A program made the position numbers and the translations under genes. 64,000 nucleotides of DNA. Source: an uncultured Chloroflexia bacterium (GTDB lineage Bacteria; Chloroflexota; Dehalococcoidia; GIF9; UBA5629). Shown here in pieces: positions 7,214-27,761 of this stretch. Location: contig CAWKFY010000017.1 in the NCBI GenBank assembly GCA_963848815.1, forward strand, positions 13,852 through 77,851, read 5' to 3'. The notes beneath the pieces were generated by a model, which saw nothing but the letters and a program-made list of their open reading frames with translations, ran no database searches and had not been told where the DNA came from. Within the stretch, counting starts at the first letter, position 1. Each line of letters begins with the position of its first letter.

Positions 7214-8209
7214 ATGGTTGAACAGGCAAGCACGGGACTAAGCATAATTCACTACGAACGCAGTAATTATAACTTCAACGGCCGGGCCACACTGGAAGAC
7301 TGCAGTGCGGCAGCCAAAAACGGCGGCGTCTTTTGGATAAACGTTGACTCCGTCACCGATCTAAGCCTGCTGCAATCTCTGGGCAATATCTTCGGTCTGC
7401 ACGACCTGACCATACAGGACATTGAGAATACGGGACACCGCGTAAAATACGAGGATTTTGCCAGCTATCTTCTGATCATGCTTAAGATGCTCGAATACGA
7501 TAAGAAAGCCAAGGCCATCGCCAGTGAACAGCTCAGCGTAATTTTCGGAGCAAATTATGTGATTACCTTCCAGGAGAGGCCGGGCGACTTTTTCGGGCCG
7601 CTGCGAGATGAAATAAGTATCGCCGATTCCATCGTCAGGAAAATGGGGCCCGATTTTCTGGCCTGCCGTATCATAGATACGGTGGTCGATAACTACTTCG
7701 GGACGGTGGAGCAGTTCGGTGAGGAGATCGAGGACAAAGAGGATGAGTTGGTCGCCAACCCCACACGCCAGACATTGAATTCCATCCAGGGCATTAAGAA
7801 AAACATGCTGCAGCTCAGGCAATATGTATGGCCGGTCAGGGAAATACTCAGCGAACTGAGTAAAAAGGACTCACCTCTCATAAAAGAAGAGACTGTCGCT
7901 TATTTCCGCGATGTCTATGATCGCATCTTTGAAGCCATGGATTTAATTGAAAATACACGCGATATGGTCAGCGGCCTGATAGACATTTACCTGTCCAGCA
8001 TGAGCAATAAGACCAACGAGGTCATGAAGGTGCTGACGGTGGTAGCCACCATATTCATTCCCCTGACCTTCATCGTGGGACTCTACGGGATGAATTTCAA
8101 ATACATGCCGGAGCTTAATAGCCCCCTGGGATATCCGGTTGTGCTGGCCTTCATGCTGGCCGTAGCAGGCGGCATGCTCATCTACTTCCGCAAGAAAAAA
8201 TGGATCTAG
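7214..8209 (+). CDS. corA: Magnesium/cobalt transporter CorA
   Basis: Signature GMNF (YGMNFKYMPEL) between two C-terminal TM helices; HRVKYEDF and ITFQERPGD motifs. Confidence 0.95.
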   Translation: MVEQASTGLSIIHYERSNYNFNGRATLEDCSAAAKNGGVFWINVDSVTDLSLLQSLGNIFGLHDLTIQDIENTGHRVKYEDFASYLLIMLKMLEYDKKAKAIASEQLSVIFGANYVITFQERPGDFFGPLRDEISIADSIVRKMGPDFLACRIIDTVVDNYFGTVEQFGEEIEDKEDELVANPTRQTLNSIQGIKKNMLQLRQYVWPVREILSELSKKDSPLIKEETVAYFRDVYDRIFEAMDLIENTRDMVSGLIDIYLSSMSNKTNEVMKVLTVVATIFIPLTFIVGLYGMNFKYMPELNSPLGYPVVLAFMLAVAGGMLIYFRKKKWI

Positions 8210-8212
8210 CCT

Positions 8213-9760
8213 CTACTCAATCATGGCCGGCTGCCCCGAGGCGCCGTTCCCTTTCCTAATGCGGCCGAACGGCAGGAACATGGCAGGTATAGTCCCCAGC
8301 AGCACGATGATGGCGCTCAGCATGTAGTTCATTTCATAGGCAGTTATATTGGCCCTGAGAACGACATACTGGTATAGAAAAGATATAGCTTCATCGTGCG
8401 CAATCTGTACGCTGTACCCCATTTGCAGAAGGGCTGACTGCACGTAGGCCAGCCAATTCATATCTGGAATCGAGTTAGGGGTTATGGTCTGTATGATGGA
8501 AGCCGTGTTTTGCTTGGTGAAATCATCCAGCATGGTGGCAAAGAAAGCGATGCCCAGGGATGCAAAGACGGTCCGGCATACATTTAGCAGAGAAGAAGCC
8601 TGTGCAGTCATCCTTTGCGGCACAGAGGAAAGGGCGTAGGTCATGATAGGCATCATGGCAAAACCTATACCCATGCCCCTGACAAAGAGAATCATACGAA
8701 GGGTATTATCGGGCATGGTCAGGTCCAGCCCTTGAAGGAAGAGGGTGGCAAAACCCGTCATAGCCAGCCCCACAACGGCGGGCACGCGCGGCCCGAACCG
8801 GTCATAAAGCTTGCCCGCTATAGGCATGGTAATCATAGAGCCGATAGCCTGCGGCAATATCATGAGGCCGCTCAGCAGGGCAGTAAATCCTCGCAGGTCC
8901 TGCAGAAAAAGGGGAAGCAGAAAAACCAGTGAAAAGAGCCCCACAGTTGTGACGAAAGTAAGCCCTATCCCCAGAGAATAGCCGGAGCTTTTAAACATGT
9001 GAAGGTCGAGCAGCGGCTTCTTCGAATAGAGCTCGGTGAGCGCCCAAGCCACCACGCCGATGATGCCTGCGGTCATGAGGCTTATGATGCGCCAATCGTT
9101 CCAGTGCCAGGTAGGCGCATACGAGAGAGCATAAAGTATGGCGCTGAACCCTATGGCCGCCAGCATGAACCCTTTATAGTCAAATGTTACTTCGGAGGTG
9201 GGGGTATCTTCGATCCAGGCCAGCCCCATGATAACCGCTAGCAGCACTATCGGCACATTGATGTAGAAACACATGCGCCAGCTCCAGGCATCCACCAGAT
9301 AGCCGCCCAGGGTAGGGCCGATGGCCGGCGCCAGCATCATAGGGATGCCGAAGAGCGCCATTGCCTCTCCCCTATCCTCTGGAGGAACAGTGGTGAAGAG
9401 AAATGTCATGGCCAGCGGGTTGAGAAGCCCTCCACACAGGCCCTGCAGTACACGGAACGTTATAAGCGACGTGGCATCCCACGACAGGCCACACAGGATG
9501 GAGCCCATCAGAAAGCCGCACTGAGCGAACAGATAGATGCGTTTTATGCCAAAGCGTTCGACCAAAAAAGCTGCAGCCGGCGTGCTGATGGCATTGGCCA
9601 TCAAGTAGGCGGAGATGATGAGCTGCGCACGGTCCGGCGTCTCATTGAAGACAGCTATGATATGCGGTAGCGCAGTATTCATGATGGTCTGATCTAAGAT
9701 CACCATGAATGTGCCGGCAATGGCGATGAGTAGTACCTTGGGCTCGCTGGTTCTCGGCAT
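8213..9760 (-). CDS. DHA2 (EmrB/QacA) family MFS efflux permease
   Basis: 14-TM pattern, LDQTIMNTAL, RFGIKR motif A, APAIGPTLGG motif C. Confidence 0.92.
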   Translation of the reverse strand: MPRTSEPKVLLIAIAGTFMVILDQTIMNTALPHIIAVFNETPDRAQLIISAYLMANAISTPAAAFLVERFGIKRIYLFAQCGFLMGSILCGLSWDATSLITFRVLQGLCGGLLNPLAMTFLFTTVPPEDRGEAMALFGIPMMLAPAIGPTLGGYLVDAWSWRMCFYINVPIVLLAVIMGLAWIEDTPTSEVTFDYKGFMLAAIGFSAILYALSYAPTWHWNDWRIISLMTAGIIGVVAWALTELYSKKPLLDLHMFKSSGYSLGIGLTFVTTVGLFSLVFLLPLFLQDLRGFTALLSGLMILPQAIGSMITMPIAGKLYDRFGPRVPAVVGLAMTGFATLFLQGLDLTMPDNTLRMILFVRGMGIGFAMMPIMTYALSSVPQRMTAQASSLLNVCRTVFASLGIAFFATMLDDFTKQNTASIIQTITPNSIPDMNWLAYVQSALLQMGYSVQIAHDEAISFLYQYVVLRANITAYEMNYMLSAIIVLLGTIPAMFLPFGRIRKGNGASGQPAMIE

Positions 9761-17972: not shown

Positions 17973-19448
17973 GTGAACTACGAAACTATCATCGGGCTGG
18001 AGGTACATTCGCAGCTTCTGACGCGCAGCAAGATGTACTGCTCCTGCAGCGCCGATTATGCCAGCGACCCTCCCAATACCCACGTCTGCCAGGTGTGCAT
18101 GGGCCTCCCGGGTGTGCTTCCTACGATTAACGAGCAGGCTGTCTTGTTTACGGTCAGGACGGGCCTGGCCCTCAACTGCACCGTCCCCGGGCATGCCAAG
18201 TTCGACCGGAAAAACTACCCCTACCCGGACCTGATGAAGGGCTACCAGATATCGCAATATGACATGCCAATGTGCGTCGGAGGCTGGCTGGAAATCGATA
18301 TCGACGGCAGGAAGAAGAAGATCGGCATTACACGCGTGCACCTTGAGGAAGACGTGGCCAAGCTGACACACCGCACTTCGCCGGAAGGCGAAAGCTACAG
18401 CCTGGTAGATATAAACCGGGCCGGCATGCCGCTGATGGAGATCGTCAGCGAGCCGGATATGGCCTCACCCGAGGAAGCACGCCTTTACCTGGTGAAGCTG
18501 AGATCGATTTTGCAGTACCTCGGCGTGTCTACGGGCAACATGGAAGAGGGCAGTTTCCGCTGCGACGCCAATATCAGCATTCGACCTGAGGGCAGCAAAG
18601 AATACCTGGCCAAGGTCGAGGTTAAAAATATGAATAGCTTCCGCGCCGTTTACCGCGCACTGGAATACGAAGCCCAGAGGCAGCGGGAAGCCATGAAAAC
18701 CGGAGAAAAAATCGTCCAGGAGACGCGCGGCTGGGTCGACGATAAGGGCGTCACTGTGAGCCAGCGCAGCAAGGAATATGCGCATGATTACCGCTATTTC
18801 CCTGAGCCGGACCTTCCACCGCTCTCCTTCAGCAGACAGATGGTGGATAAAATCAGGGCCGGCCTGCCGGAACTGCCGGAACAGGTCTATGCAGACCTGA
18901 TAGCCAAATACGACCTATCTTCATATGATGCGGAGCTGATAACCCAGTCGAAGCATTATGTCGCTTATTTCAAGAACAGCGTGGCGTTAGGCACAGGCAC
19001 ATCCGCCAATATGAAACAGAGGGCCAAGATCATCAGCAACTGGATGCTGGGCGAGCTTACGCGGCTGCTCAACGCCCAGAATGTTAAACCCGAAGAAGCG
19101 CATGACAAGGTGCCGGAGGCCAACTTCGTCGAGATGCTGGACCTTATCGATAAGGGAACGTTAAGCGGTCCTCTTTCCAAAACAGTATTCGAAGAGATGT
19201 TCAACAGCGGAAAAAAAGCGAGCGCAATTGTAGCTGAGAAAGGCTTAAGGCAAATCAGCGACAGTGGAGAACTTGCTATAATTGTAGATAAAATTATCGC
19301 TGATAATGAGAAAGCGGTTGTCGACTACAAAGCGGGCAAGGAGGCGTCGCTGACCTTCCTCATAGGACAGGTCATGAAAGCCTCGAAAGGCAAGGCCAAC
19401 CCCGCGGTAGTCAGGCAACTGATCGTCGACAAACTCGGAGGAAATTAA
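17973..19448 (+). CDS. gatB: Asp-tRNA(Asn)/Glu-tRNA(Gln) amidotransferase subunit B
   Basis: IGLEVH, FDRKNY.YPDL.KGYQISQ, HLEED, NRAGMPLMEIVSEPD, RCDANIS, EVKNMNS, YRYFPEPDL. Confidence 0.97.
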   Translation: MNYETIIGLEVHSQLLTRSKMYCSCSADYASDPPNTHVCQVCMGLPGVLPTINEQAVLFTVRTGLALNCTVPGHAKFDRKNYPYPDLMKGYQISQYDMPMCVGGWLEIDIDGRKKKIGITRVHLEEDVAKLTHRTSPEGESYSLVDINRAGMPLMEIVSEPDMASPEEARLYLVKLRSILQYLGVSTGNMEEGSFRCDANISIRPEGSKEYLAKVEVKNMNSFRAVYRALEYEAQRQREAMKTGEKIVQETRGWVDDKGVTVSQRSKEYAHDYRYFPEPDLPPLSFSRQMVDKIRAGLPELPEQVYADLIAKYDLSSYDAELITQSKHYVAYFKNSVALGTGTSANMKQRAKIISNWMLGELTRLLNAQNVKPEEAHDKVPEANFVEMLDLIDKGTLSGPLSKTVFEEMFNSGKKASAIVAEKGLRQISDSGELAIIVDKIIADNEKAVVDYKAGKEASLTFLIGQVMKASKGKANPAVVRQLIVDKLGGN

Positions 19449-19449
19449 C

Positions 19450-19674
19450 ATGCCTATTTATCTTCTCATAGCACAGATAGTGATATCGCTGGCGCTGATC
19501 GCTGTGCTGACTTTACAGGTTAAGGGCGGCGGCCTGGGCGGCATTTTTGGCCAGGCCGACGGTGTATATAGGACCCGCCGCGGCGTAGAAAAAACACTGT
19601 TTCAGGTTACTATCGTATTGGCCGTAATATTCGTGGCGCTCTCTATCGTGATCGTCAGGGTCAGCGCTTCGTAA
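19450..19674 (+). CDS. secG: Preprotein translocase subunit SecG
   Basis: LQVKGGGLGGIFG...RRGVEKTLFQVT, two TM helices. Confidence 0.93.
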   Translation: MPIYLLIAQIVISLALIAVLTLQVKGGGLGGIFGQADGVYRTRRGVEKTLFQVTIVLAVIFVALSIVIVRVSAS

Positions 19675-19688
19675 CTCGGGGTATCAGG

Positions 19689-20534
19689 ATGTCAAGGGTT
19701 GTCACTTTGACGACCGACTTCGGTATCAGCGACGGTTATGTTGCCAGTATGAAAGGCGTCATACTCGGCATTAATCCGCAGGCCAAGATCGTCGATATTA
19801 CCCACGCCATAGCTCCCCAGTCCATTCGCGAGGCTTCTTTCATCCTGCATACCTCCTGGCGCTATTTTCCCGAGGGGACCATACATGTAATCGTGATCGA
19901 CCCGGGAGTGGGCAGCCACCGCCGGGCGGTCATCCTCAAAACGCCGACCGCAACTTTTGTTACACCGGATAACGGCACACTCAGTTATATTTTGCACGAG
20001 CTTTCCTCCGAAAAAGCGGCGCAAAGCATCCCCATGTCCGACCTGGTTGCCAAACAGGCGCTGCCCGAGGGATGTGAAGCGGTATCTATCACGAAGCAGG
20101 AATACTGGCGCCATCCGGTGAGCTCCACTTTTCACGGACGCGATATTTTCGCCCCTGTGGCGGCACATCTATCATTAGACCTGCCGGTGAGGGAATTCGG
20201 CGAGAGCATCGAAAGCCTCAACGCCTTCCATGTCCCTGTACCCTTTAAGGATGCCATGGGCCACATAATAGGCCAGATCATACATATCGACAGGTTCGGC
20301 AACCTCATTACCAACCTGAAGAGCCGCGATATACCGGCTGGCGGCGCTGCGGTAGAAATAAAAAATCAGAGGATAATCAACACCAGCAACTATTACGCGC
20401 AGGGTAAAGGATTGATGGCTATCGTCGGCAGCAGCGACTACCTTGAGCTTTCATTGAAGGACGGCAGCGCGGCCGCCTTCCTGGGCATAACTATCGGGGA
20501 TACCGTAAAAATTCTCAGCAGCCTGCCGCACTAA
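19689..20534 (+). CDS. DUF62 SAM hydrolase/SAM-dependent halogenase family protein (likely SAM hydroxide adenosyltransferase)
   Basis: TLTTDFG, DITHAI, VIDPGVGSHRR, PDNG, STFHGRDIFAP, HIDRFGN.ITN. Confidence 0.92.
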   Translation: MSRVVTLTTDFGISDGYVASMKGVILGINPQAKIVDITHAIAPQSIREASFILHTSWRYFPEGTIHVIVIDPGVGSHRRAVILKTPTATFVTPDNGTLSYILHELSSEKAAQSIPMSDLVAKQALPEGCEAVSITKQEYWRHPVSSTFHGRDIFAPVAAHLSLDLPVREFGESIESLNAFHVPVPFKDAMGHIIGQIIHIDRFGNLITNLKSRDIPAGGAAVEIKNQRIINTSNYYAQGKGLMAIVGSSDYLELSLKDGSAAAFLGITIGDTVKILSSLPH

Positions 20535-20537
20535 CAG

Positions 20538-20576
20538 CTACTTGGCTATCTTCCAGGTCGTGTCCTTGGGAGTGTC
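20538..20576 (-). repeat. Displaced, diverged copy of the cysS 3' end (13 codons)
   Basis: Reads GAC ACT CCC AAG GAC ACG ACC TGG AAG ATA GCC AAG TAG (DTPKDTTWKIAK*), versus cysS 26399-26437 GAC ACG CCC AAA GGG ACG ACC TGG AAG ATA TCG CAC TGA ([12 protein letters not shown]). 26/30 identical over the first 10 codons, including a 15-nt exact match, and the stop is at the same position. Confidence 0.82.
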
Positions 20577-20578
20577 AA

Positions 20579-21370
20579 TTATTCACCACGCCACTGCGGT
20601 TCTCTTTTCTCCAACCAGGCAACGGGGCCCTCCAATACATCAGGTGTCGTATAGTTAATAAGCATAGCCATCTCAGTCAACTCAAGATTAATATTCCTGA
20701 ACATATCCATTCCCCTCCACAACAAACGCTTGGCAAACTGCGTTGCCACAGGAGCCTGAGTAAATTGCCTGCAATATTCTTTCGCTGCAGATAAAAACTC
20801 ATCGTCGGGGAACACCTTACTCACATAGCCTATTTTTAAAGCTTCCTCAGCATCAATCATTTTACCCGACCATATTAGCTCTAGAGCTTTAGCAGTGCCC
20901 ACTATACGGGGTAAAAAATAACAACCGGCATCACCGGGAAGGAGACCCATTCGTACATAGGTCATGCCCACCCTGGCTTTGTCTGACATTATTCTCATAT
21001 CCGCCATACTTGCCATATCCATACCGGCGCCGGCAGCCGGGCCGTTTATTGCGGCGATGTAAGGTTTATCCAGACTTTCTATAGCACGTGGTATCCTGTG
21101 TACAGTCATACGAAAGTAGTTACGCATCGAATAAAGCGCCGGCACTTCTTTGCGGCTGGAAACAGCCTTGATATCCATTCCAGAACAAAACCCTTTACCT
21201 GCTCCAGTTACAATTACAACTCTGACTTTCGGATCGGTCTTTGCCAATTCAATTGCGTCAACCCACTCGTCGAGCATGGTATCATTGAACGCATTGAGAG
21301 TCTCAGGGCGATTAAGAGTGATGGTGGCGATATAATCCTCAACTGTATATATAATATCCTTGTATGACAT
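20579..21370 (-). CDS. Enoyl-CoA hydratase/isomerase family protein
   Basis: ITLNRPE..NAF, TGAGKGFCSGMD, KPYIAAINGPAAGAG, GLLPGDAG. Confidence 0.92.
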   Translation of the reverse strand: MSYKDIIYTVEDYIATITLNRPETLNAFNDTMLDEWVDAIELAKTDPKVRVVIVTGAGKGFCSGMDIKAVSSRKEVPALYSMRNYFRMTVHRIPRAIESLDKPYIAAINGPAAGAGMDMASMADMRIMSDKARVGMTYVRMGLLPGDAGCYFLPRIVGTAKALELIWSGKMIDAEEALKIGYVSKVFPDDEFLSAAKEYCRQFTQAPVATQFAKRLLWRGMDMFRNINLELTEMAMLINYTTPDVLEGPVAWLEKREPQWRGE

Positions 21371-21456
21371 AATTCTCTCCTTTTACTTTATCGATCCACG
21401 TTTATCACGAAATTACTCCGGACATCGGCCAAAAATTTTACTGTGAAGATACCGAG

Positions 21457-22320
21457 CTACGACAGCCCCAATAATCCGGCCGGATTCACTTTTACCATTA
21501 ATTCGACTTCGCTTTCCGTCATGCCGTACTTAAGCATGGTTGCAATGAACATCCGCATGCCCTCGGGGGGTGGCGGATTATCGTTTTGTCCGAAATCTGT
21601 GCTCATTATGCAATGCTCAGCACCGATCAGCTTCATAGCCTGTACCATTTGTGCCGGATCACGCCGTCCTCCACTGGATACAATTTCCAGAAAACAATGC
21701 TCAATTACAGCCCCTTCTTTGACCAGTTTAACCTGATCCTCTACTGTCAAGGACTTATCAAGCCCATGAGAACACATAGCATGAGTTATGACTATCTTCG
21801 TTAATCCTGCCTGTTTAGCCTCTGTAACCAGTGTGAAAATCTCAGCCGGAGCGAGATGGCCGGTAGCCAGGACCATATCATGCTTTTTAATGACAGGGAA
21901 TATCTGTCTTACGGTTGCCTTATTCTCCTCTTCGAGGATATTGAAACCTTTTTCTTTAAAATCAACACCTAACAGCCTGGTTAAGGCCAGCCTGGTATTT
22001 TGGGCAGAGAAGGTGGGCATCCAGATTACCCTTGCGCCCAGTTCTCCGGCCGCTTCCACAACCGGGACATTTATACCACCAGTTTCATACTCAAGACAGA
22101 GACTTCCATAGGTTGATATACCGGGAACCGCCTGATTAACAATGTAGGACATTGGAGCAGTTAGATAACTGTGGCTTTTAAACACAATGCCTCCCATGCC
22201 GTATTCCCTGGCCAACCTGGCCACCTGCAAAGCATCCATGCGTCGTTCAATGAGAACGTCCGGCCCGGCGTGAACATGAAAGTCAATAGATCCTTGCAAC
22301 AGTTGGTCTGCTCTACTCAT
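21457..22320 (-). CDS. DUF6282 family metal-dependent TIM-barrel protein (amidohydrolase-like)
   Basis: DFHVHAGPD, VFKSH, WMPTFSA, LATGHL, VITH, STDFGQ, NPAGLLG. Confidence 0.8.
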   Translation of the reverse strand: MSRADQLLQGSIDFHVHAGPDVLIERRMDALQVARLAREYGMGGIVFKSHSYLTAPMSYIVNQAVPGISTYGSLCLEYETGGINVPVVEAAGELGARVIWMPTFSAQNTRLALTRLLGVDFKEKGFNILEEENKATVRQIFPVIKKHDMVLATGHLAPAEIFTLVTEAKQAGLTKIVITHAMCSHGLDKSLTVEDQVKLVKEGAVIEHCFLEIVSSGGRRDPAQMVQAMKLIGAEHCIMSTDFGQNDNPPPPEGMRMFIATMLKYGMTESEVELMVKVNPAGLLGLS

Positions 22321-22364
22321 TTATCACGTCCTATCCTTGACGCTATAGGAACGCTCATATTTTC

Positions 22365-23969
22365 CTACCGCTGCAGCATATAACCGCTGGCTTCTCTATC
22401 CCACGCATTTCCAATACCTTCCTTCCTGAGGATCTCTTTCTGTATTTTATCCGTGCCCTTTGTTCTTGGAAATTCTTTGACAAACTCTACGAATCTCGGG
22501 ATCATAAATCGTGCCAGCTTGGTTTGCAGATAATCCAGCAACTCCTCAGGATTCATGCTCTGCCCATCATGTAATCGCACCATTATCTTGGTCTCTGTTA
22601 TCTTACCTAACTGCACACCGATCAGAGCCGTCTCAACAATCTTCGGATTCTGTATGCAGGCAGCTTCTACTACCTCCACAGGTATCCACTCCCCTTTAAC
22701 ATTTATACTATCGGCGAGACGTTGTTCGAATAGAAGATTCCCATCTTCATCAAACCTGCCGGCATCACCCGTGTGAAACCATCCATTATTGAAAGCCTGT
22801 TTGTTTTTATCCGGCATGTTGTAATAGCCGTCAAATATTACATGGGGTTCCTTGCCCCGGACGATTATCTCGCCCACCTCATTGACAGCTTTTTCTTTAT
22901 CGTTTTCATCCACAACCTTTATCTCTACATAGTCCACAGGTTTGCCACAGAACTTTATCAACATTTCACCTAGATGGTCCATCTTCCTGGGTATCGGCAG
23001 ATAATGCCTATGCATGACCACGAAACCCGGAAGCTCCGTCGACCCGTAACCACTTCCTCCTACAGGTATCTTGAAACGTTCCATAACGGTACGCACCGCC
23101 GCCACAGGTATCATTCTAACCCTGTGCTGAGTTTCCTCAGGTGTAACGGGTTGTGCCAGCTGATAGATTATCGGCGCTGAATGAAGCACGAGTAACGTGG
23201 CTCTATACTTTACCACCTGTTTCCAGAATTGCGACGCGCTGTATTTCTCGACGATGACCACACTGCCGTTGCCGGCCAGAGTATTCATAAGAAAGTAGGT
23301 CTGAGGATTGATATGAAATAAGGGCAGGGGGTCAAATGAAATGTCGGTGTAATTGGTCATAGACCATTCCCTTAAATATTCACCCGAGGTAAGATAGGCC
23401 TTATGACTCAACATCGCCCACTTCGGAGCACCTGTGGTCCCCGCTGTGTGTATAAAGCCCATCGGTTCCCCATTGTCGATTTCTATTAATGGAGGCGCCG
23501 AAGGGGAAGCATTGGAGAAGATCTGATCAAAACCGATTACCTGCTGTGAATCAATCCCCTCAGAATCAGGCATGCAAATCACATGTTTGATCTCAGGCAA
23601 GGATTTGCTGACCTGAGCATAATTTCCCCATCTGTCATTATTGATAATAACGAATTCTGCGTCAGCCTGGCTGAGCAGATATTGAAGGCTTTCTCCCTTA
23701 AAATCTACATTTACGAATAAGCTGATCGCTCCCAATTTCGCTAAACCAAACCAGCAATAAAGGAACTCGGGACAATTTGTCATAACTATGGCAACCTTCG
23801 TCCCTTTCCTCACACCGAGATCGTATAGAGCGTTAGCCACCTTGTTTGCACTGGCGTCGACCTGCCCGTAGGAATACATTTCGTCCCGAAACCAGATGCA
23901 GGGTAAGTCCTTACCCAAATCAACTTTTTCTTCAAACCATTGCCTGAAATTAATTTTTGGTATATTCAT
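22365..23969 (-). CDS. Acyl-CoA ligase (CaiC/crotonobetaine-CoA ligase-like AMP-binding protein)
   Basis: HTAGTTGAPK AMP-binding loop, PLFHIN, YGSTE, GWFHTGD, KGTDKIQK. Confidence 0.9.
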   Translation of the reverse strand: MNIPKINFRQWFEEKVDLGKDLPCIWFRDEMYSYGQVDASANKVANALYDLGVRKGTKVAIVMTNCPEFLYCWFGLAKLGAISLFVNVDFKGESLQYLLSQADAEFVIINNDRWGNYAQVSKSLPEIKHVICMPDSEGIDSQQVIGFDQIFSNASPSAPPLIEIDNGEPMGFIHTAGTTGAPKWAMLSHKAYLTSGEYLREWSMTNYTDISFDPLPLFHINPQTYFLMNTLAGNGSVVIVEKYSASQFWKQVVKYRATLLVLHSAPIIYQLAQPVTPEETQHRVRMIPVAAVRTVMERFKIPVGGSGYGSTELPGFVVMHRHYLPIPRKMDHLGEMLIKFCGKPVDYVEIKVVDENDKEKAVNEVGEIIVRGKEPHVIFDGYYNMPDKNKQAFNNGWFHTGDAGRFDEDGNLLFEQRLADSINVKGEWIPVEVVEAACIQNPKIVETALIGVQLGKITETKIMVRLHDGQSMNPEELLDYLQTKLARFMIPRFVEFVKEFPRTKGTDKIQKEILRKEGIGNAWDREASGYMLQR

Positions 23970-24066
23970 TTTAAATTCTCATAACGCTTGATATCTATTT
24001 TCTCTGAGAAATATCCTTCAGTATTCCTTCACATATGTCGGGTATTAAAGGAACCTTCCGTCAATG

Positions 24067-25188
24067 TTAAAATCCCTGTAACATCATTACCTGGCTAGCG
24101 ATATTGTTCAACATAATCTCCGAGGTTCCCCCGCCTACCTGCATAGCCTTAACCCCCAGCAAGAATCGTTCGTACATTGTGCCGCGATAGCATGCATGAC
24201 TGCCGACCAGTGAAAAACACTTGTTGGCAATTTTTTCGGCTGCTTCACCTGCAAGGTACTTTGCTACTGCTGTTTCCAAAATATGCTCAATACCATTGTC
24301 TTCCATCCAGGCGGCGCGGTCTCTGGCCAGCTTAGCAGCTTCCAGGTTGGCATATAACTCAGCAATCGTCCACTTGATGCCCTGAAAATCTGTCACATGG
24401 CGGCTGCCGACTACCCTTTCTTTGGCATATTTGACGGCACGGTCCAGGCATCCACGCCCTATACCGATGAATTGAGAGGCATTGCCTATTCTGCTCAAAT
24501 TGAAAGTTTGCAGGAAAATATCCAGTGCGCCACCTTCCCTGCCCAATATCTGGGTTTTGGGGATACGACAATCCAAATAAATGTCATACATTGGCGCCGT
24601 TCGGCCTGCCATGCCCTCGGCCTTAACAAATTTCACACCATCGCTGTCTTTATCAATAAGAAACTCGGTTAGCCCTGACTCGGTCTTCGTTAGCAGAATA
24701 AAAACGCCTGCTTCCTTTGCTAAGTTGATATGCTTCTTATGGCCTTTGATCACATAGTATTCACCATCTTTGACAGCTATGGTTTCCAAATTTTTGAAGC
24801 TCGACCCCGCATTGGGCTCGGAGATCGCCTGGGCGGAGGTAAATTCACCATTTGCCAGCCGTGGCAAATATCTTTTTTTCTGCTCCTCGGTACCGGCAAC
24901 AAGAATAGATTTCTCCGCCTGAACATTGGTTTGAGGCGATAGCAAACCTTCCTTGGTCAATTCCTCAATGATAATAGCGTATTCCATGGCGCCCTTTCCC
25001 ATGCCACCATATTCCAGCGGCACGATAGGGCCTGTCCAGCATTTCTGACCCATGCTTAAAAAAAGATCTTCCGGGAAAATACCTTCCTCTTCTTCGCATT
25101 CTCGTTGCGGCTTGGTAGACTCTGCTCTGGCAAATTCAGCAACTTCGTTTTTCAGCTCCAGTTGTTCTTTTGTGTATTCGAAATTCAT
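24067..25188 (-). CDS. Acyl-CoA dehydrogenase
   Basis: VPLEYGG.G, AISEPNAGS, IKGHK..I, SRIGNASQ.IG, DFQGIKW, GGTSEIM. Confidence 0.92.
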   Translation of the reverse strand: MNFEYTKEQLELKNEVAEFARAESTKPQRECEEEEGIFPEDLFLSMGQKCWTGPIVPLEYGGMGKGAMEYAIIIEELTKEGLLSPQTNVQAEKSILVAGTEEQKKRYLPRLANGEFTSAQAISEPNAGSSFKNLETIAVKDGEYYVIKGHKKHINLAKEAGVFILLTKTESGLTEFLIDKDSDGVKFVKAEGMAGRTAPMYDIYLDCRIPKTQILGREGGALDIFLQTFNLSRIGNASQFIGIGRGCLDRAVKYAKERVVGSRHVTDFQGIKWTIAELYANLEAAKLARDRAAWMEDNGIEHILETAVAKYLAGEAAEKIANKCFSLVGSHACYRGTMYERFLLGVKAMQVGGGTSEIMLNNIASQVMMLQGF

Positions 25189-25441
25189 GTATTTCCTCCA
25201 CTAATTTATTTCCATCTCGAACTTCGGATTATGCAGCCGATCTACCCTATCGTCAACATAACTCCCGCGTGTATTGAGAAGGTGAGGCTAGAAGGAATAG
25301 TTTTATGTATATTACCATTCAAAACATCTATGTCAATATTTTTTACATTTTTATTAACTATTTTTATTGTTTTGATTTTATAGTTATCAATATTGTCCAA
25401 TATATTTACAATATTTGGAATATATGATATCAATATTGACC

Positions 25442-26353
25442 ATGGGACAACTGGATGATATCGATAAAAAAATAATCGGCGTGCTAAGAACAAATGCTTA
25501 CATGAGCAGTATCGAGATGTCAAAACATATCGATATTTGCGCTTCAACCATCCGTCGCCGGGTAAATAAGCTCATAAAAAATGATGTCATACGTATACAG
25601 GCTGTTCAAATAAATCGCGTAAGAACATCTCTGACAGTTGGTATTCTGCTTAAAGTAGAAAACAGTGCAATCAGCCGGACGGCTGATCTATTAGCTGGCC
25701 AGAAGGAAGTAGGATTTATAACGTTGATCACGGGCTACTATAATATAGCCTGCCTTTGCTGGTTTGCATCTGTTCAATCATATTCCCGATTCCTAAACAC
25801 AATACTTTATCCCATGCAGGATGTGCTGGATACAGATACCTTAATTTGCACTAAATATGTTAAACACGCATCAATTAGACTCGATGATACGGTTGATTTA
25901 ACTGAACCGGCTAACAAAAAAGTCGACGATATCGATATGAAAATTATTGAAGAGCTCGAAAAAGATGCTCGTCAAAGCATGACAAGGCTGGCAAAGAACC
26001 TCAATATTAGCGCTCCTACTATCAAACGCAGAATAAAAGCACTATTAGACAATAACATTATCCGAATACTGGCTATACCCAACCTATGCACCGGAAAAAC
26101 AGTCGTGGTTTCCATAGCGCTGAAGGTCGAAAATAGCGCACTCAATAACATTGTAGACCGGCTATGCGATTTCGATGAAGTGCGGCAGGTTTTGTTGTTA
26201 TCAGGCACTTATGATATAAGTGTCTGGGCATGGTTTGAATCTATTGAAACCTTCTCGAAGTTCTTACAGAATGTTATTAATCCTCTGGAGGGAGTAGAAA
26301 AAAAGCTAGTTGCCATCCAAACTGAATTTAGGAAATGGACACACCAGCATTAA
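25442..26353 (+). CDS. Lrp/AsnC family regulator with tandem duplicated HTH-AsnC modules
   Basis: Two repeats: LDDIDKKII..L..NA...RRRVNKL and VDDIDMKIIEELEKDARQS...KRRIKAL, each followed by a ITGYYNI/LSGTYDI regulatory domain. Start placed at ATG 25442. Confidence 0.88.
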   Translation: MGQLDDIDKKIIGVLRTNAYMSSIEMSKHIDICASTIRRRVNKLIKNDVIRIQAVQINRVRTSLTVGILLKVENSAISRTADLLAGQKEVGFITLITGYYNIACLCWFASVQSYSRFLNTILYPMQDVLDTDTLICTKYVKHASIRLDDTVDLTEPANKKVDDIDMKIIEELEKDARQSMTRLAKNLNISAPTIKRRIKALLDNNIIRILAIPNLCTGKTVVVSIALKVENSALNNIVDRLCDFDEVRQVLLLSGTYDISVWAWFESIETFSKFLQNVINPLEGVEKKLVAIQTEFRKWTHQH

Positions 26354-26398
26354 CCATCGTATTCTGTTATGGCTATGTCCTGATATCAAAGGCTTCAA

Positions 26399-27761
26399 TC
26401 AGTGCGATATCTTCCAGGTCGTCCCTTTGGGCGTGTCCTCAATAGCTATCCCCATCTTGAGCAACTGGTCGCGCACCTCGTCGGCCTGCTTCCACTCTTT
26501 GGCTTTGCGGTACTGGTTGCGCTCGCTCTATCAGCTCCAGGATTTTCTCCTCTTGAGAGTGTTCAAGCTTTCTGGCCTCCTGCAGGGTAAAGCCGATCAC
26601 GCCGGCCAGCTCTTTAAGCATCTGCTGAGCGGGGCCGATGTCCATCCCCTTCTCGCTGCCGCGATTGATCTCACGCACCAGTTCGAACATGGCAGCCACG
26701 GCCTGCGGCGCGCTGAAATCATCGTCCATGGCCTCCATAAAACGCATCCTGTACGGCCCGGCGTCAAGTACTTCGCCGCCCGGCTTACCCTCCGCCTTGA
26801 TAGCCTGCTTCATTCTCTCGATGCCGGTTTCAGCAGCGTCGAGGGCTTCCTCACTATAGCGCAGCGGCATCCTGTAGTAGGAGCTTATGATAAAGAGCCT
26901 GATGGCGTCGGCGCTGTTGCGCTCCAGCGCCTGCTTGATGGTAACCAGGTTGCCCAGCGATTTGCTCATCTTGTCCGCGCCGAGCTGCAGAAAGCCGTTG
27001 TGCATCCAGATGCGCACGAAGGGCTCGACTCCGGTGAAACATTCCGACTGGGCCATTTCGTTCTCATGGTGCGGGAATACCAGGTCCTGTCCGCCGCCGT
27101 GAATATCCAGCGTTTTGCCCAGATGCTTGATGGACATGGCCGTGCATTCGATATGCCAGCCCGGACGGCCTTCGCCCCAGGGGCTGGGCCAGGCCGGCTC
27201 GCCCGGCTTGGCCGCTTTCCAGAGCGCAAAGTCCAGGGGGTCTTCTTTTTTCTCAGTCTCGGAAGTTTCGGTGACCCGCATGTCGTCCGCAGTCTGGTGC
27301 GTCAACTTTCCATAGCCGGGGAAGCTTTTTACCCGGAAATAAACGCTGCCGTCGTCCACCCGGTAAGCATGTCCCTTATCCACCAGGGTCTGGATGACCT
27401 GGATAATCATGGGTATTTCCTCGGTAGCCCGGGGATAAATCGTCGCCCTCTGGATATTAAGGGCGTCCATATCCGCGAAAAATTCGCCGATATATTTTTC
27501 CACCAGCTCTTTCCAGGGTATATGCCTCTCGTTTGAGCGGTTTATGATCTTATCGTCGATGTCGGTGAAATTCTGCACGTATTTGACCTGGTATCCCCGG
27601 TATTCCAGGTAGCGCCTGATGACGTCGAACGTTATATAGCTCAGCGCGTGGCCGAAATGACAGACATCATATACCGTAACCCCGCAAACATACATCTTAA
27701 CTTCGTTATCTTGGGGAGCAAACTCTTCCTTTTGGCCGGACAGGGTATTGAATATCTTCAT
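26399..27761 (-). CDS. cysS: Cysteine--tRNA ligase; frameshift near 26525
   Basis: [45 protein letters not shown]. The +1 frame continues [21 protein letters not shown]...[13 protein letters not shown]. Confidence 0.95.

Follow-up and report, generated by a model that had tools for sequence, protein, structure and literature searches.

A probable displaced cysS terminus beside DUF62 marks the entry of a foreign metabolic cassette in an uncultured Dehalococcoidia lineage

Introduction

In a 64-kb stretch of DNA from an uncultured Dehalococcoidia genome (contig C17 of genome G000; hereafter the window), the last codons of the cysteinyl-tRNA synthetase gene cysS appear twice, once at the end of the gene and once as a fragment 5.8 kb away, beside a gene of the DUF62 family. 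Why should a gene have two ends? The fragment, of 39 nucleotides (nt), lies at 20576..20538 on the minus strand (GACACTCCCAAGGACACGACCTGGAAGATAGCCAAGTAG) and translates as DTPKDTTWKIAK followed by a stop. An initial annotation, made from the letters of the window alone, took it for the original end of cysS and proposed that the present end had arrived with a beta-oxidation cassette that now separates the two. Our analysis indicates that the fragment is very probably the former 3' terminus of cysS, stranded when a foreign 5.83-kb cassette entered the last codons of the gene. At the level of sequence comparison, four elements of this account are established: the ancestral adjacency of cysS and DUF62, the match between the end of the fragment and the cysS tails of congeners, the foreign composition and patchy distribution of the insert, and the homology of the surrogate cysS terminus across all copies of the cassette.

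A cysS tail in the gap beside DUF62

The gap between the stop codons of an enoyl-CoA hydratase (ECH) gene and of DUF62 is 44 nt long and consists almost entirely of the fragment, which leaves 2 nt on the ECH side (ECH stop TAA, 20581-20579) and 3 nt (CTG) on the other. The stop of the fragment, TAG at 20540-20538, is followed by this CTG and then by TTA, which on the opposite strand is the stop codon of DUF62 (20534-20532). The conserved tail of cysS itself is found at 26437..26399 on the minus strand and ends with TGA at 26401-26399. A repeat search of the window aligned the two tails as a direct repeat of 30 nt (20547-20576 and 26408-26437), 87% identical (26/30) and spaced 5861 nt apart. 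Within the repeat is an exact 15-nt core, ACGACCTGGAAGATA, whose only two sites in the 64 kb are the far-side copy at 20547..20561 and the cysS-side copy at 26408..26422, both on the minus strand. The reading of the gap as a cysS-like tail is confirmed by this repeat, and the probability of a chance match could be estimated: shuffled sequences gave an expectation of 0.00 matches to the core, even with one mismatch allowed. Similarly, the 44-nt spacer aligned to the cysS of a congener with a score of 53, reached by none of 5000 shuffles (maximum 36).

The two copies differ by four substitutions and a 3-nt gap. These are confined to the 21 nt that precede the core, which itself is free of differences. 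One substitution in the fragment puts Asp (DTPKD) at a position that is Gly in every cysS tail read. The Thr codon inside the core is ACG in both copies, as against ACC in all five congeners, and the segment GACACTCCCAA of the fragment is identical to that of congener L004.

Cassette-free relatives and the ancestral gene order

The order gatB-secG-DUF62, directly facing cysS, was found in all five other genomes of the same genus (G001-G005), in 15 of the 17 searched genomes of the sister genus g31, and in several other genera of the family. In the five congeners, CysS ends in Ala-Lys with a TAG stop (WKIAK in four, WKMAK in one), and 3 nt separate this stop from that of DUF62, as they do in the fragment. 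The Ser-His end with TGA that closes the cysS of the window occurs in none of the five, and a terminus of this surrogate type was absent from every cassette-free genome examined, congeners and g31 alike. Altogether, 20 of the 22 genomes of g1 (the genus of the window) and g31 in which cysS was found show a clean, scar-free cysS/DUF62 junction.

The same arrangement is recovered from the window when its flanks are joined at the 15-nt core. The joined site reads cysS...TGGAAGATAGCCAAGTAG-CTG-TTA...DUF62 and aligns with the five congeners without a gap at the joint, with the usual identity of 0.8-0.9 across it; the sole gap in the stretch shown is a 1-nt frameshift insertion in cysS, discussed below. 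The ancestral state shown by these comparisons is that of cysS and DUF62 in convergent orientation with their stops 3 nt apart. The two outcomes that the initial annotation had named as refuting it were both looked for and did not occur: cassette-free relatives do have cysS beside DUF62, and their tails resemble the fragment and not the present end.

The inserted cassette and its distribution

The insert spans 20579..26407, as delimited from open reading frames, G+C (guanine plus cytosine) content and Pfam assignments, and comprises five genes: ECH (20579-21370, minus strand; PF00378), a DUF6282 gene (21457-22320, minus strand), an AMP-binding CoA ligase (22365-23969, minus strand; PF00501/PF13193), an acyl-CoA dehydrogenase (ACAD; 24067-25188, minus strand; PF02771/PF02770/PF00441) and a tandem Lrp/AsnC regulator (25415-26353, plus strand). 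The G+C content of these genes is 39-48%, compared with 54-56% in the flanking genes, and at third codon positions the contrast is 0.40-0.51 versus 0.65-0.72. The intergenic gaps of the cassette are at most 226 nt and leave no space for a further gene. No recombinase was detected among the five genes by Pfam, and neither contig C17 of G000 nor contig C49 of G059, the second host described below, gave a match to the tyrosine integrase family (PF00589). The name of beta-oxidation cassette is only partly apt. An acyl-CoA ligase, an acyl-CoA dehydrogenase and an enoyl-CoA hydratase are present, but a 3-hydroxyacyl-CoA dehydrogenase and a thiolase are found neither among the five genes nor among the two extra genes of the longer form described below, and the set is an incomplete one.

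A scan of species-representative genomes identified one close copy, L031, in a Dehalococcoidia metagenome-assembled genome (G059, genus g31), and look-ups in metagenomes and sequence clusters added L053, L056-L060, L061 and L062. Wherever a flank is on the contig, the neighbour of the cassette is cysS at one edge and DUF62 at the opposite edge, and both flanks are available in L031, L053 and L056. Carriers amount to 2 of the 77 genomes of the family (one of six in g1 and one of 17 in g31). At fourfold-degenerate sites, the cassette of the window is 0.54-0.69 identical to those of g31, compared with 0.36-0.49 for host genes between the two genera; cysS of the window and of its congeners are 0.52-0.57 identical at such sites. 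Because the distribution is patchy, the synonymous divergence is lower than that of host genes and the foreign composition recurs in the L031 host, the cassette is, on these sequence comparisons, a horizontal acquisition and not an ancestral feature that was repeatedly lost. Two groups of more distant relatives were set aside as uninformative on the junctions: ECH homologues of about 80% identity (P0004, P0008), which are stand-alone genes in unrelated contexts, and L054, a 60% homologous ACAD-ligase-hydrolase set located elsewhere.

Junctions and the surrogate cysS terminus

Junctions are given here in cysS orientation. On the left, the window reads TGGAAG ATA TCG CAC TGA TTGAAGCC..., L031, L056 and L061 read TGGAAG CTG TCG CGT TGA TT..., and L053 reads TGGAAA GCA GCA CGT TGA TTTAAGC.... 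The last codons of the present cysS, TCG CAC TGA (Ser-His-stop; 26399..26407, minus strand), together with the next 45 nt, are homologous to the DNA that closes and follows cysS in L031, L053, L056 and L061, where the counterpart is TCG CGT TGA (L031, L056 and L061) or GCA CGT TGA (L053); in these four copies, cysS thus ends in xSR or AAR with TGA. Because the downstream DNA is homologous in all copies, the cassette carries a short cysS-type terminus (x-S/A-R/H-stop) of its own. Judged from these alignments, the cassette-borne part of the present cysS is limited to the last 2-3 codons and the stop. For these codons the proposal that the current end came with the cassette is upheld; the remaining 3' region of cysS looks native. 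A long tract of homologous recombination in cysS was also considered and rejected, as sliding identity among cassette hosts is not raised in the last 600 nt and the 3' end looks native.

On the right, the window reads GGTGAATA ATTGACACTCCCAAGGACACGACCTGGAAGATA GCCAAGTAG CTG TTA, L031 and L062 read GGTGAATA GCCAGGT(A/T)G T TCA, and L053 reads GGTGAATA GCCAGAAGTGGA TCA. The far-side remnants match the tail type of the host genus, with GCCAAGTAG (Ala-Lys-stop) in g1 and GCCAGGTAG (Ala-Arg-stop) in g31. The far side of L031, L053 and L062 retains (ATA)GCCAGGTAG, a host-type IAR end, and the junction from ECH to DUF62 in L062 is as in L031. In the L056-type copies, the spacer between ECH and DUF62 is 93 nt long (90 nt tested) and gives a gapped alignment of the kind expected from a decayed tail, with 7 of 1000 shuffles as good.

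This spacer, at 9958-10050 of L056 and also present in L057-L061, looks like a single cysS tail, or two in succession, in an advanced state of decay (TTGGGTACGTGGCAATA... followed by ...CACGATCAGTGAAGTATCACG), and its distal part resembles a second tail of the ...WKVSR type. Old tails thus seem to be retained, and repeated events may have stacked them. A common origin of the far-side remnants was tried and set aside, since the remnant of the window matches the distal part of the L056 spacer best only marginally (score 22 versus 20), which is not decisive. Further, a likeness of the 3' end of ECH (GGTGAATAG) to the cysS tail is dismissed as coincidence or microhomology; the ending ...W(R/T/S/K)GE is native to the hydratase family.

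Proposed origin of the scar

The sequence of events that best accommodates these observations starts from convergent cysS and DUF62 genes with stops 3 nt apart. A cassette of 5.83 kb, acquired horizontally, then entered cysS within its last codons, and the incoming DNA brought a substitute Ser-His-stop together with the 3' flank of the regulator. CysS stayed full length because of this substitute terminus, and the old terminus, Ala-Lys-TAG, was left at the far end of the insert, beside DUF62. The joint itself would stem from recombination of the cysS tail already in place with a similar sequence on the incoming DNA, the crossover falling within the 15-nt identical core. Two routes can be envisaged: one crossover, by way of a circular intermediate, or two crossovers with a donor in which both tails were already present. 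In a circular intermediate, the joint would read ECH stop-ATTGACAC...AAGATA-TCGCACTGATTGAAG. The upstream half of the fragment (ATTGA-CACTCCCAAGGAC) would then derive from the cassette, with the core and GCCAAGTAG being resident. Because the cassette encodes no recombinase, we assume that the joint was made by the recombination machinery of the host or by a recombinase supplied in trans.

The view of the fragment as the original cysS end is supported, with a reservation. Its last 9 nt, its TAG stop and the 3-nt spacer (20535-20537) match the congener tails in sequence and spacing, but its upstream 15-21 nt may be cassette-borne or decayed and not pristine. The fragment is now non-coding.

Several points weigh against this account. 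No recombinase gene is linked to the cassette, which leaves a site-specific mechanism without an identified enzyme. That the differences cluster upstream of the core is of only weak significance (about 0.07 by our own estimate, (21/36)^5), and an own tail that was duplicated and then decayed would account for it almost equally well. The shared ACG codon fits self-duplication, although its position inside the core fits a crossover too. L031 and L053 keep only 8-12 nt and no long repeat, so that extra deletions must be assumed for them. In addition, the sampled cassettes come no closer than a fourfold-site identity of about 0.6-0.7, so that no donor is identified among them, and the assembly is prone to indel errors, so that single-base details carry some risk.

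Alternative explanations

The main rival explanation accepts the same insertion but treats the whole fragment of 39-45 nt as the own tail of the lineage, duplicated at insertion and later decayed by a 3-nt deletion and four substitutions. We regard it as possible, if clearly tentative; it accounts for the data nearly as well, and it corresponds to what the initial annotation had proposed. One end of the cassette would have recombined at the extreme 3' end of cysS and the end at the ECH stop would have been joined illegitimately about 45 nt upstream, either by homology-facilitated illegitimate recombination or by a staggered break with fill-in, duplicating the target. The tail-like stretch after the ECH stop, ATTGACACTCCCAAGGAC, is cassette-borne or lineage-own depending on which of the two explanations is followed. 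Duplication of the own tail fits the continuity of the fragment with the host-type sequence GCCAAGTAG-CTG-TTA, the identity of GACACTCCCAA to congener L004 and the ACG codon in both copies where the congeners have ACC. It also fits the right junction of the window, which is unlike those of the g31 copies, as expected of independent joints. A neutral remnant of moderate age could well differ by the 13% seen between the copies, since fourfold-site identity to the congeners is 0.52-0.57. It fits less well that all five differences lie upstream of the 15-nt core and none inside it. The left joint would need a crossover in the last few nucleotides of cysS, where no longer donor tract is detectable, and the long decayed tail remnants of the L056-type copies seemingly persist with the cassette.

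That the family inherited the cassette at this site from its ancestor and lost it repeatedly, with the fragment as an old internal duplication, is highly improbable. The occupation of the same site in two genera would agree with it, but the scar-free junction prevails among the genomes of g1 and g31 (20 of 22), the composition of the cassette is foreign in both hosts, and its synonymous divergence is smaller than that of the hosts between genera. Moreover, the far-side remnants are of the host's own type, Ala-Lys-stop in g1 and Ala-Arg-stop in g31. A chance match between the spacer and the cysS tail, which the shortness of the stretch (39 nt) might bring to mind, is practically negligible, since none of 5000 shuffles reached the observed score, the 15-mer is expected 0.00 times, and stop type, 3-nt spacing and position are exactly as in the relatives.

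Comparison with known integration systems

Insertions at the 3' end of an essential gene have been described in the same bacterial class, where the ssrA islands of Dehalococcoides are the closest parallel. They are low-G+C elements at the 3' end of the single-copy essential transfer-messenger RNA gene, which stays intact, and they are moved by the serine recombinase DsiB, which belongs to their integration module; a 20-bp direct repeat of the 3' end of the gene marks their far edge, their presence is patchy among strains, and the repeats can stack (McMurdie et al. 2011, PMC3146451). The cysS cassette resembles them in being a low-G+C insert of foreign composition in the last codons of a gene whose product keeps its full length (bar a probable assembly frameshift), with the 3' end of the target directly repeated at its far edge (30 nt, 26/30, with a 15-nt exact core), a patchy distribution and one site in different lineages. 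It differs in that it sits in a protein-coding end, that of an aminoacyl-tRNA synthetase gene, and not in an RNA gene, no recombinase is present, the repeat is imperfect (26/30) and the last two residues of CysS are changed.

The lambdoid phage 21 and the element e14 of Escherichia coli insert into the 3' coding end of icd and supply a replacement 3' end with which the protein stays functional; the original 3' end is left cryptic at the far end of the insert. These are prophages with their own integrase and a substituted segment of about 165 nt. Unlike them, the cysS insert is a five-gene metabolic cassette without mobility genes, and only 2-3 codons were substituted. Homology-facilitated illegitimate recombination, associated with the work of de Vries and Wackernagel on transformable bacteria, combines a homologous anchor on one flank with a microhomology join on the other and needs no mobility genes. 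Its usual outcome is a deletion of recipient DNA and not a duplication of 30-45 nt. The term appears in PMC6382021.

A search of the available literature for cysS as an integration site returned no relevant report. The last codons of cysS could serve this family as a dedicated attachment site for metabolic islets that have no recombinase of their own and rely on a site-specific one encoded elsewhere, in the way that ssrA islands use DsiB, but we consider this unlikely. If it were true, each visit of an islet would swap the C-terminal residues of CysS and stack old tails, and the 93-nt L056-type spacer, with perhaps two decayed tails, would be an example.

The locus is a clear and well-documented but ordinary insertion scar and represents no new kind of system. 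Its value lies in a base-level reconstruction of the gain of a catabolic cassette by an uncultured Dehalococcoidia lineage, which fixes the insertion point and presents an essential gene kept whole by a borrowed terminus, with one and the same cassette occupying this site in two genera and no mobility gene. The scar can serve in dating and tracing horizontal transfer in the group and offers a small case study of integrase-less islands.

Assembly quality and further features of the locus

The initial annotation placed the cysS end 5.8 kb from the fragment, which is correct for the conserved tail (26437..26399) but not for the gene as assembled. The assembled open reading frame, 27761..26439, encodes 440 residues and ends in ...DGDSY at 26439, and the conserved tail follows in another frame. 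Compared with all five congeners, cysS (26399..27761, minus strand, assigned by Pfam and congener alignment, and native up to the core) has a 1-nt insertion at about 26523 (26521-26524, minus strand; GAGCGaGCGCAAC), some 40 codons before its end, downstream of which the reading frame is perfectly conserved. Without the presumed erroneous base, the sequence within 26500-26540 would read GAGCGGCGCAAC. Relative to the complete congener genome G004, four further frame breaks occur in ispF (about 27990), in a gene of 1290 residues (about 46583) and in a gene of 1240 residues (about 52955 and 50455). These genes are intact in G004, and at least ispF is essential. The source genome is of normal size, with an estimated completeness of only 74.7%. 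Several frame breaks together with this completeness at normal size make an indel-prone assembly the likely cause, and the cysS frameshift is probably an assembly error.

The genes beyond DUF62 (19689-20534, plus strand; SAM hydroxide adenosyltransferase, the ancestral convergent neighbour of cysS) are secG (19450-19674) and gatB (17973-19448), both on the plus strand and, like DUF62, assigned by Pfam. The fragment between DUF62 and ECH presumably has no present function and is not to be annotated as a gene. Folding z-scores of 0.60 and -0.44 gave no fold or terminator signal of its own, and no terminator-like signal was found past the new cysS stop. The only such hairpin, CGGCAGGCTGCTG with a T-run, lies at 20516-20528 (minus strand), just past the old cysS stop and inside the coding end of DUF62; today it would follow the ECH operon and not cysS.

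A further genus of the family has a different insert on this side of cysS. In L069 (contig C131 of G018, 7961-9125), cysS ends in WKVVK with TAG, and 30 nt beyond it lies a convergent gene for an acyl-CoA dehydrogenase that is only 27% identical to that of the window; the contig ends before any DUF62 gene is reached.

Finally, the g31 copies of the cassette contain seven genes, the extras being an SGL/arylesterase-like gene and an MFS transporter gene. In the window, the spacer between the Lrp/AsnC regulator and ACAD corresponds to the Lrp-SGL spacer of the longer form joined to roughly the final 80 nt of the MFS gene (25204..25285, minus strand) and the ACAD leader. The deletion joint lies at about 25285-25300 (spacer 25204-25300), where a loss of about 2.6 kb has removed the SGL/arylesterase-like and MFS genes. 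Because this remnant of the MFS 3' end persists in the spacer, the five-gene form of the window is a deletion derivative of the seven-gene form.

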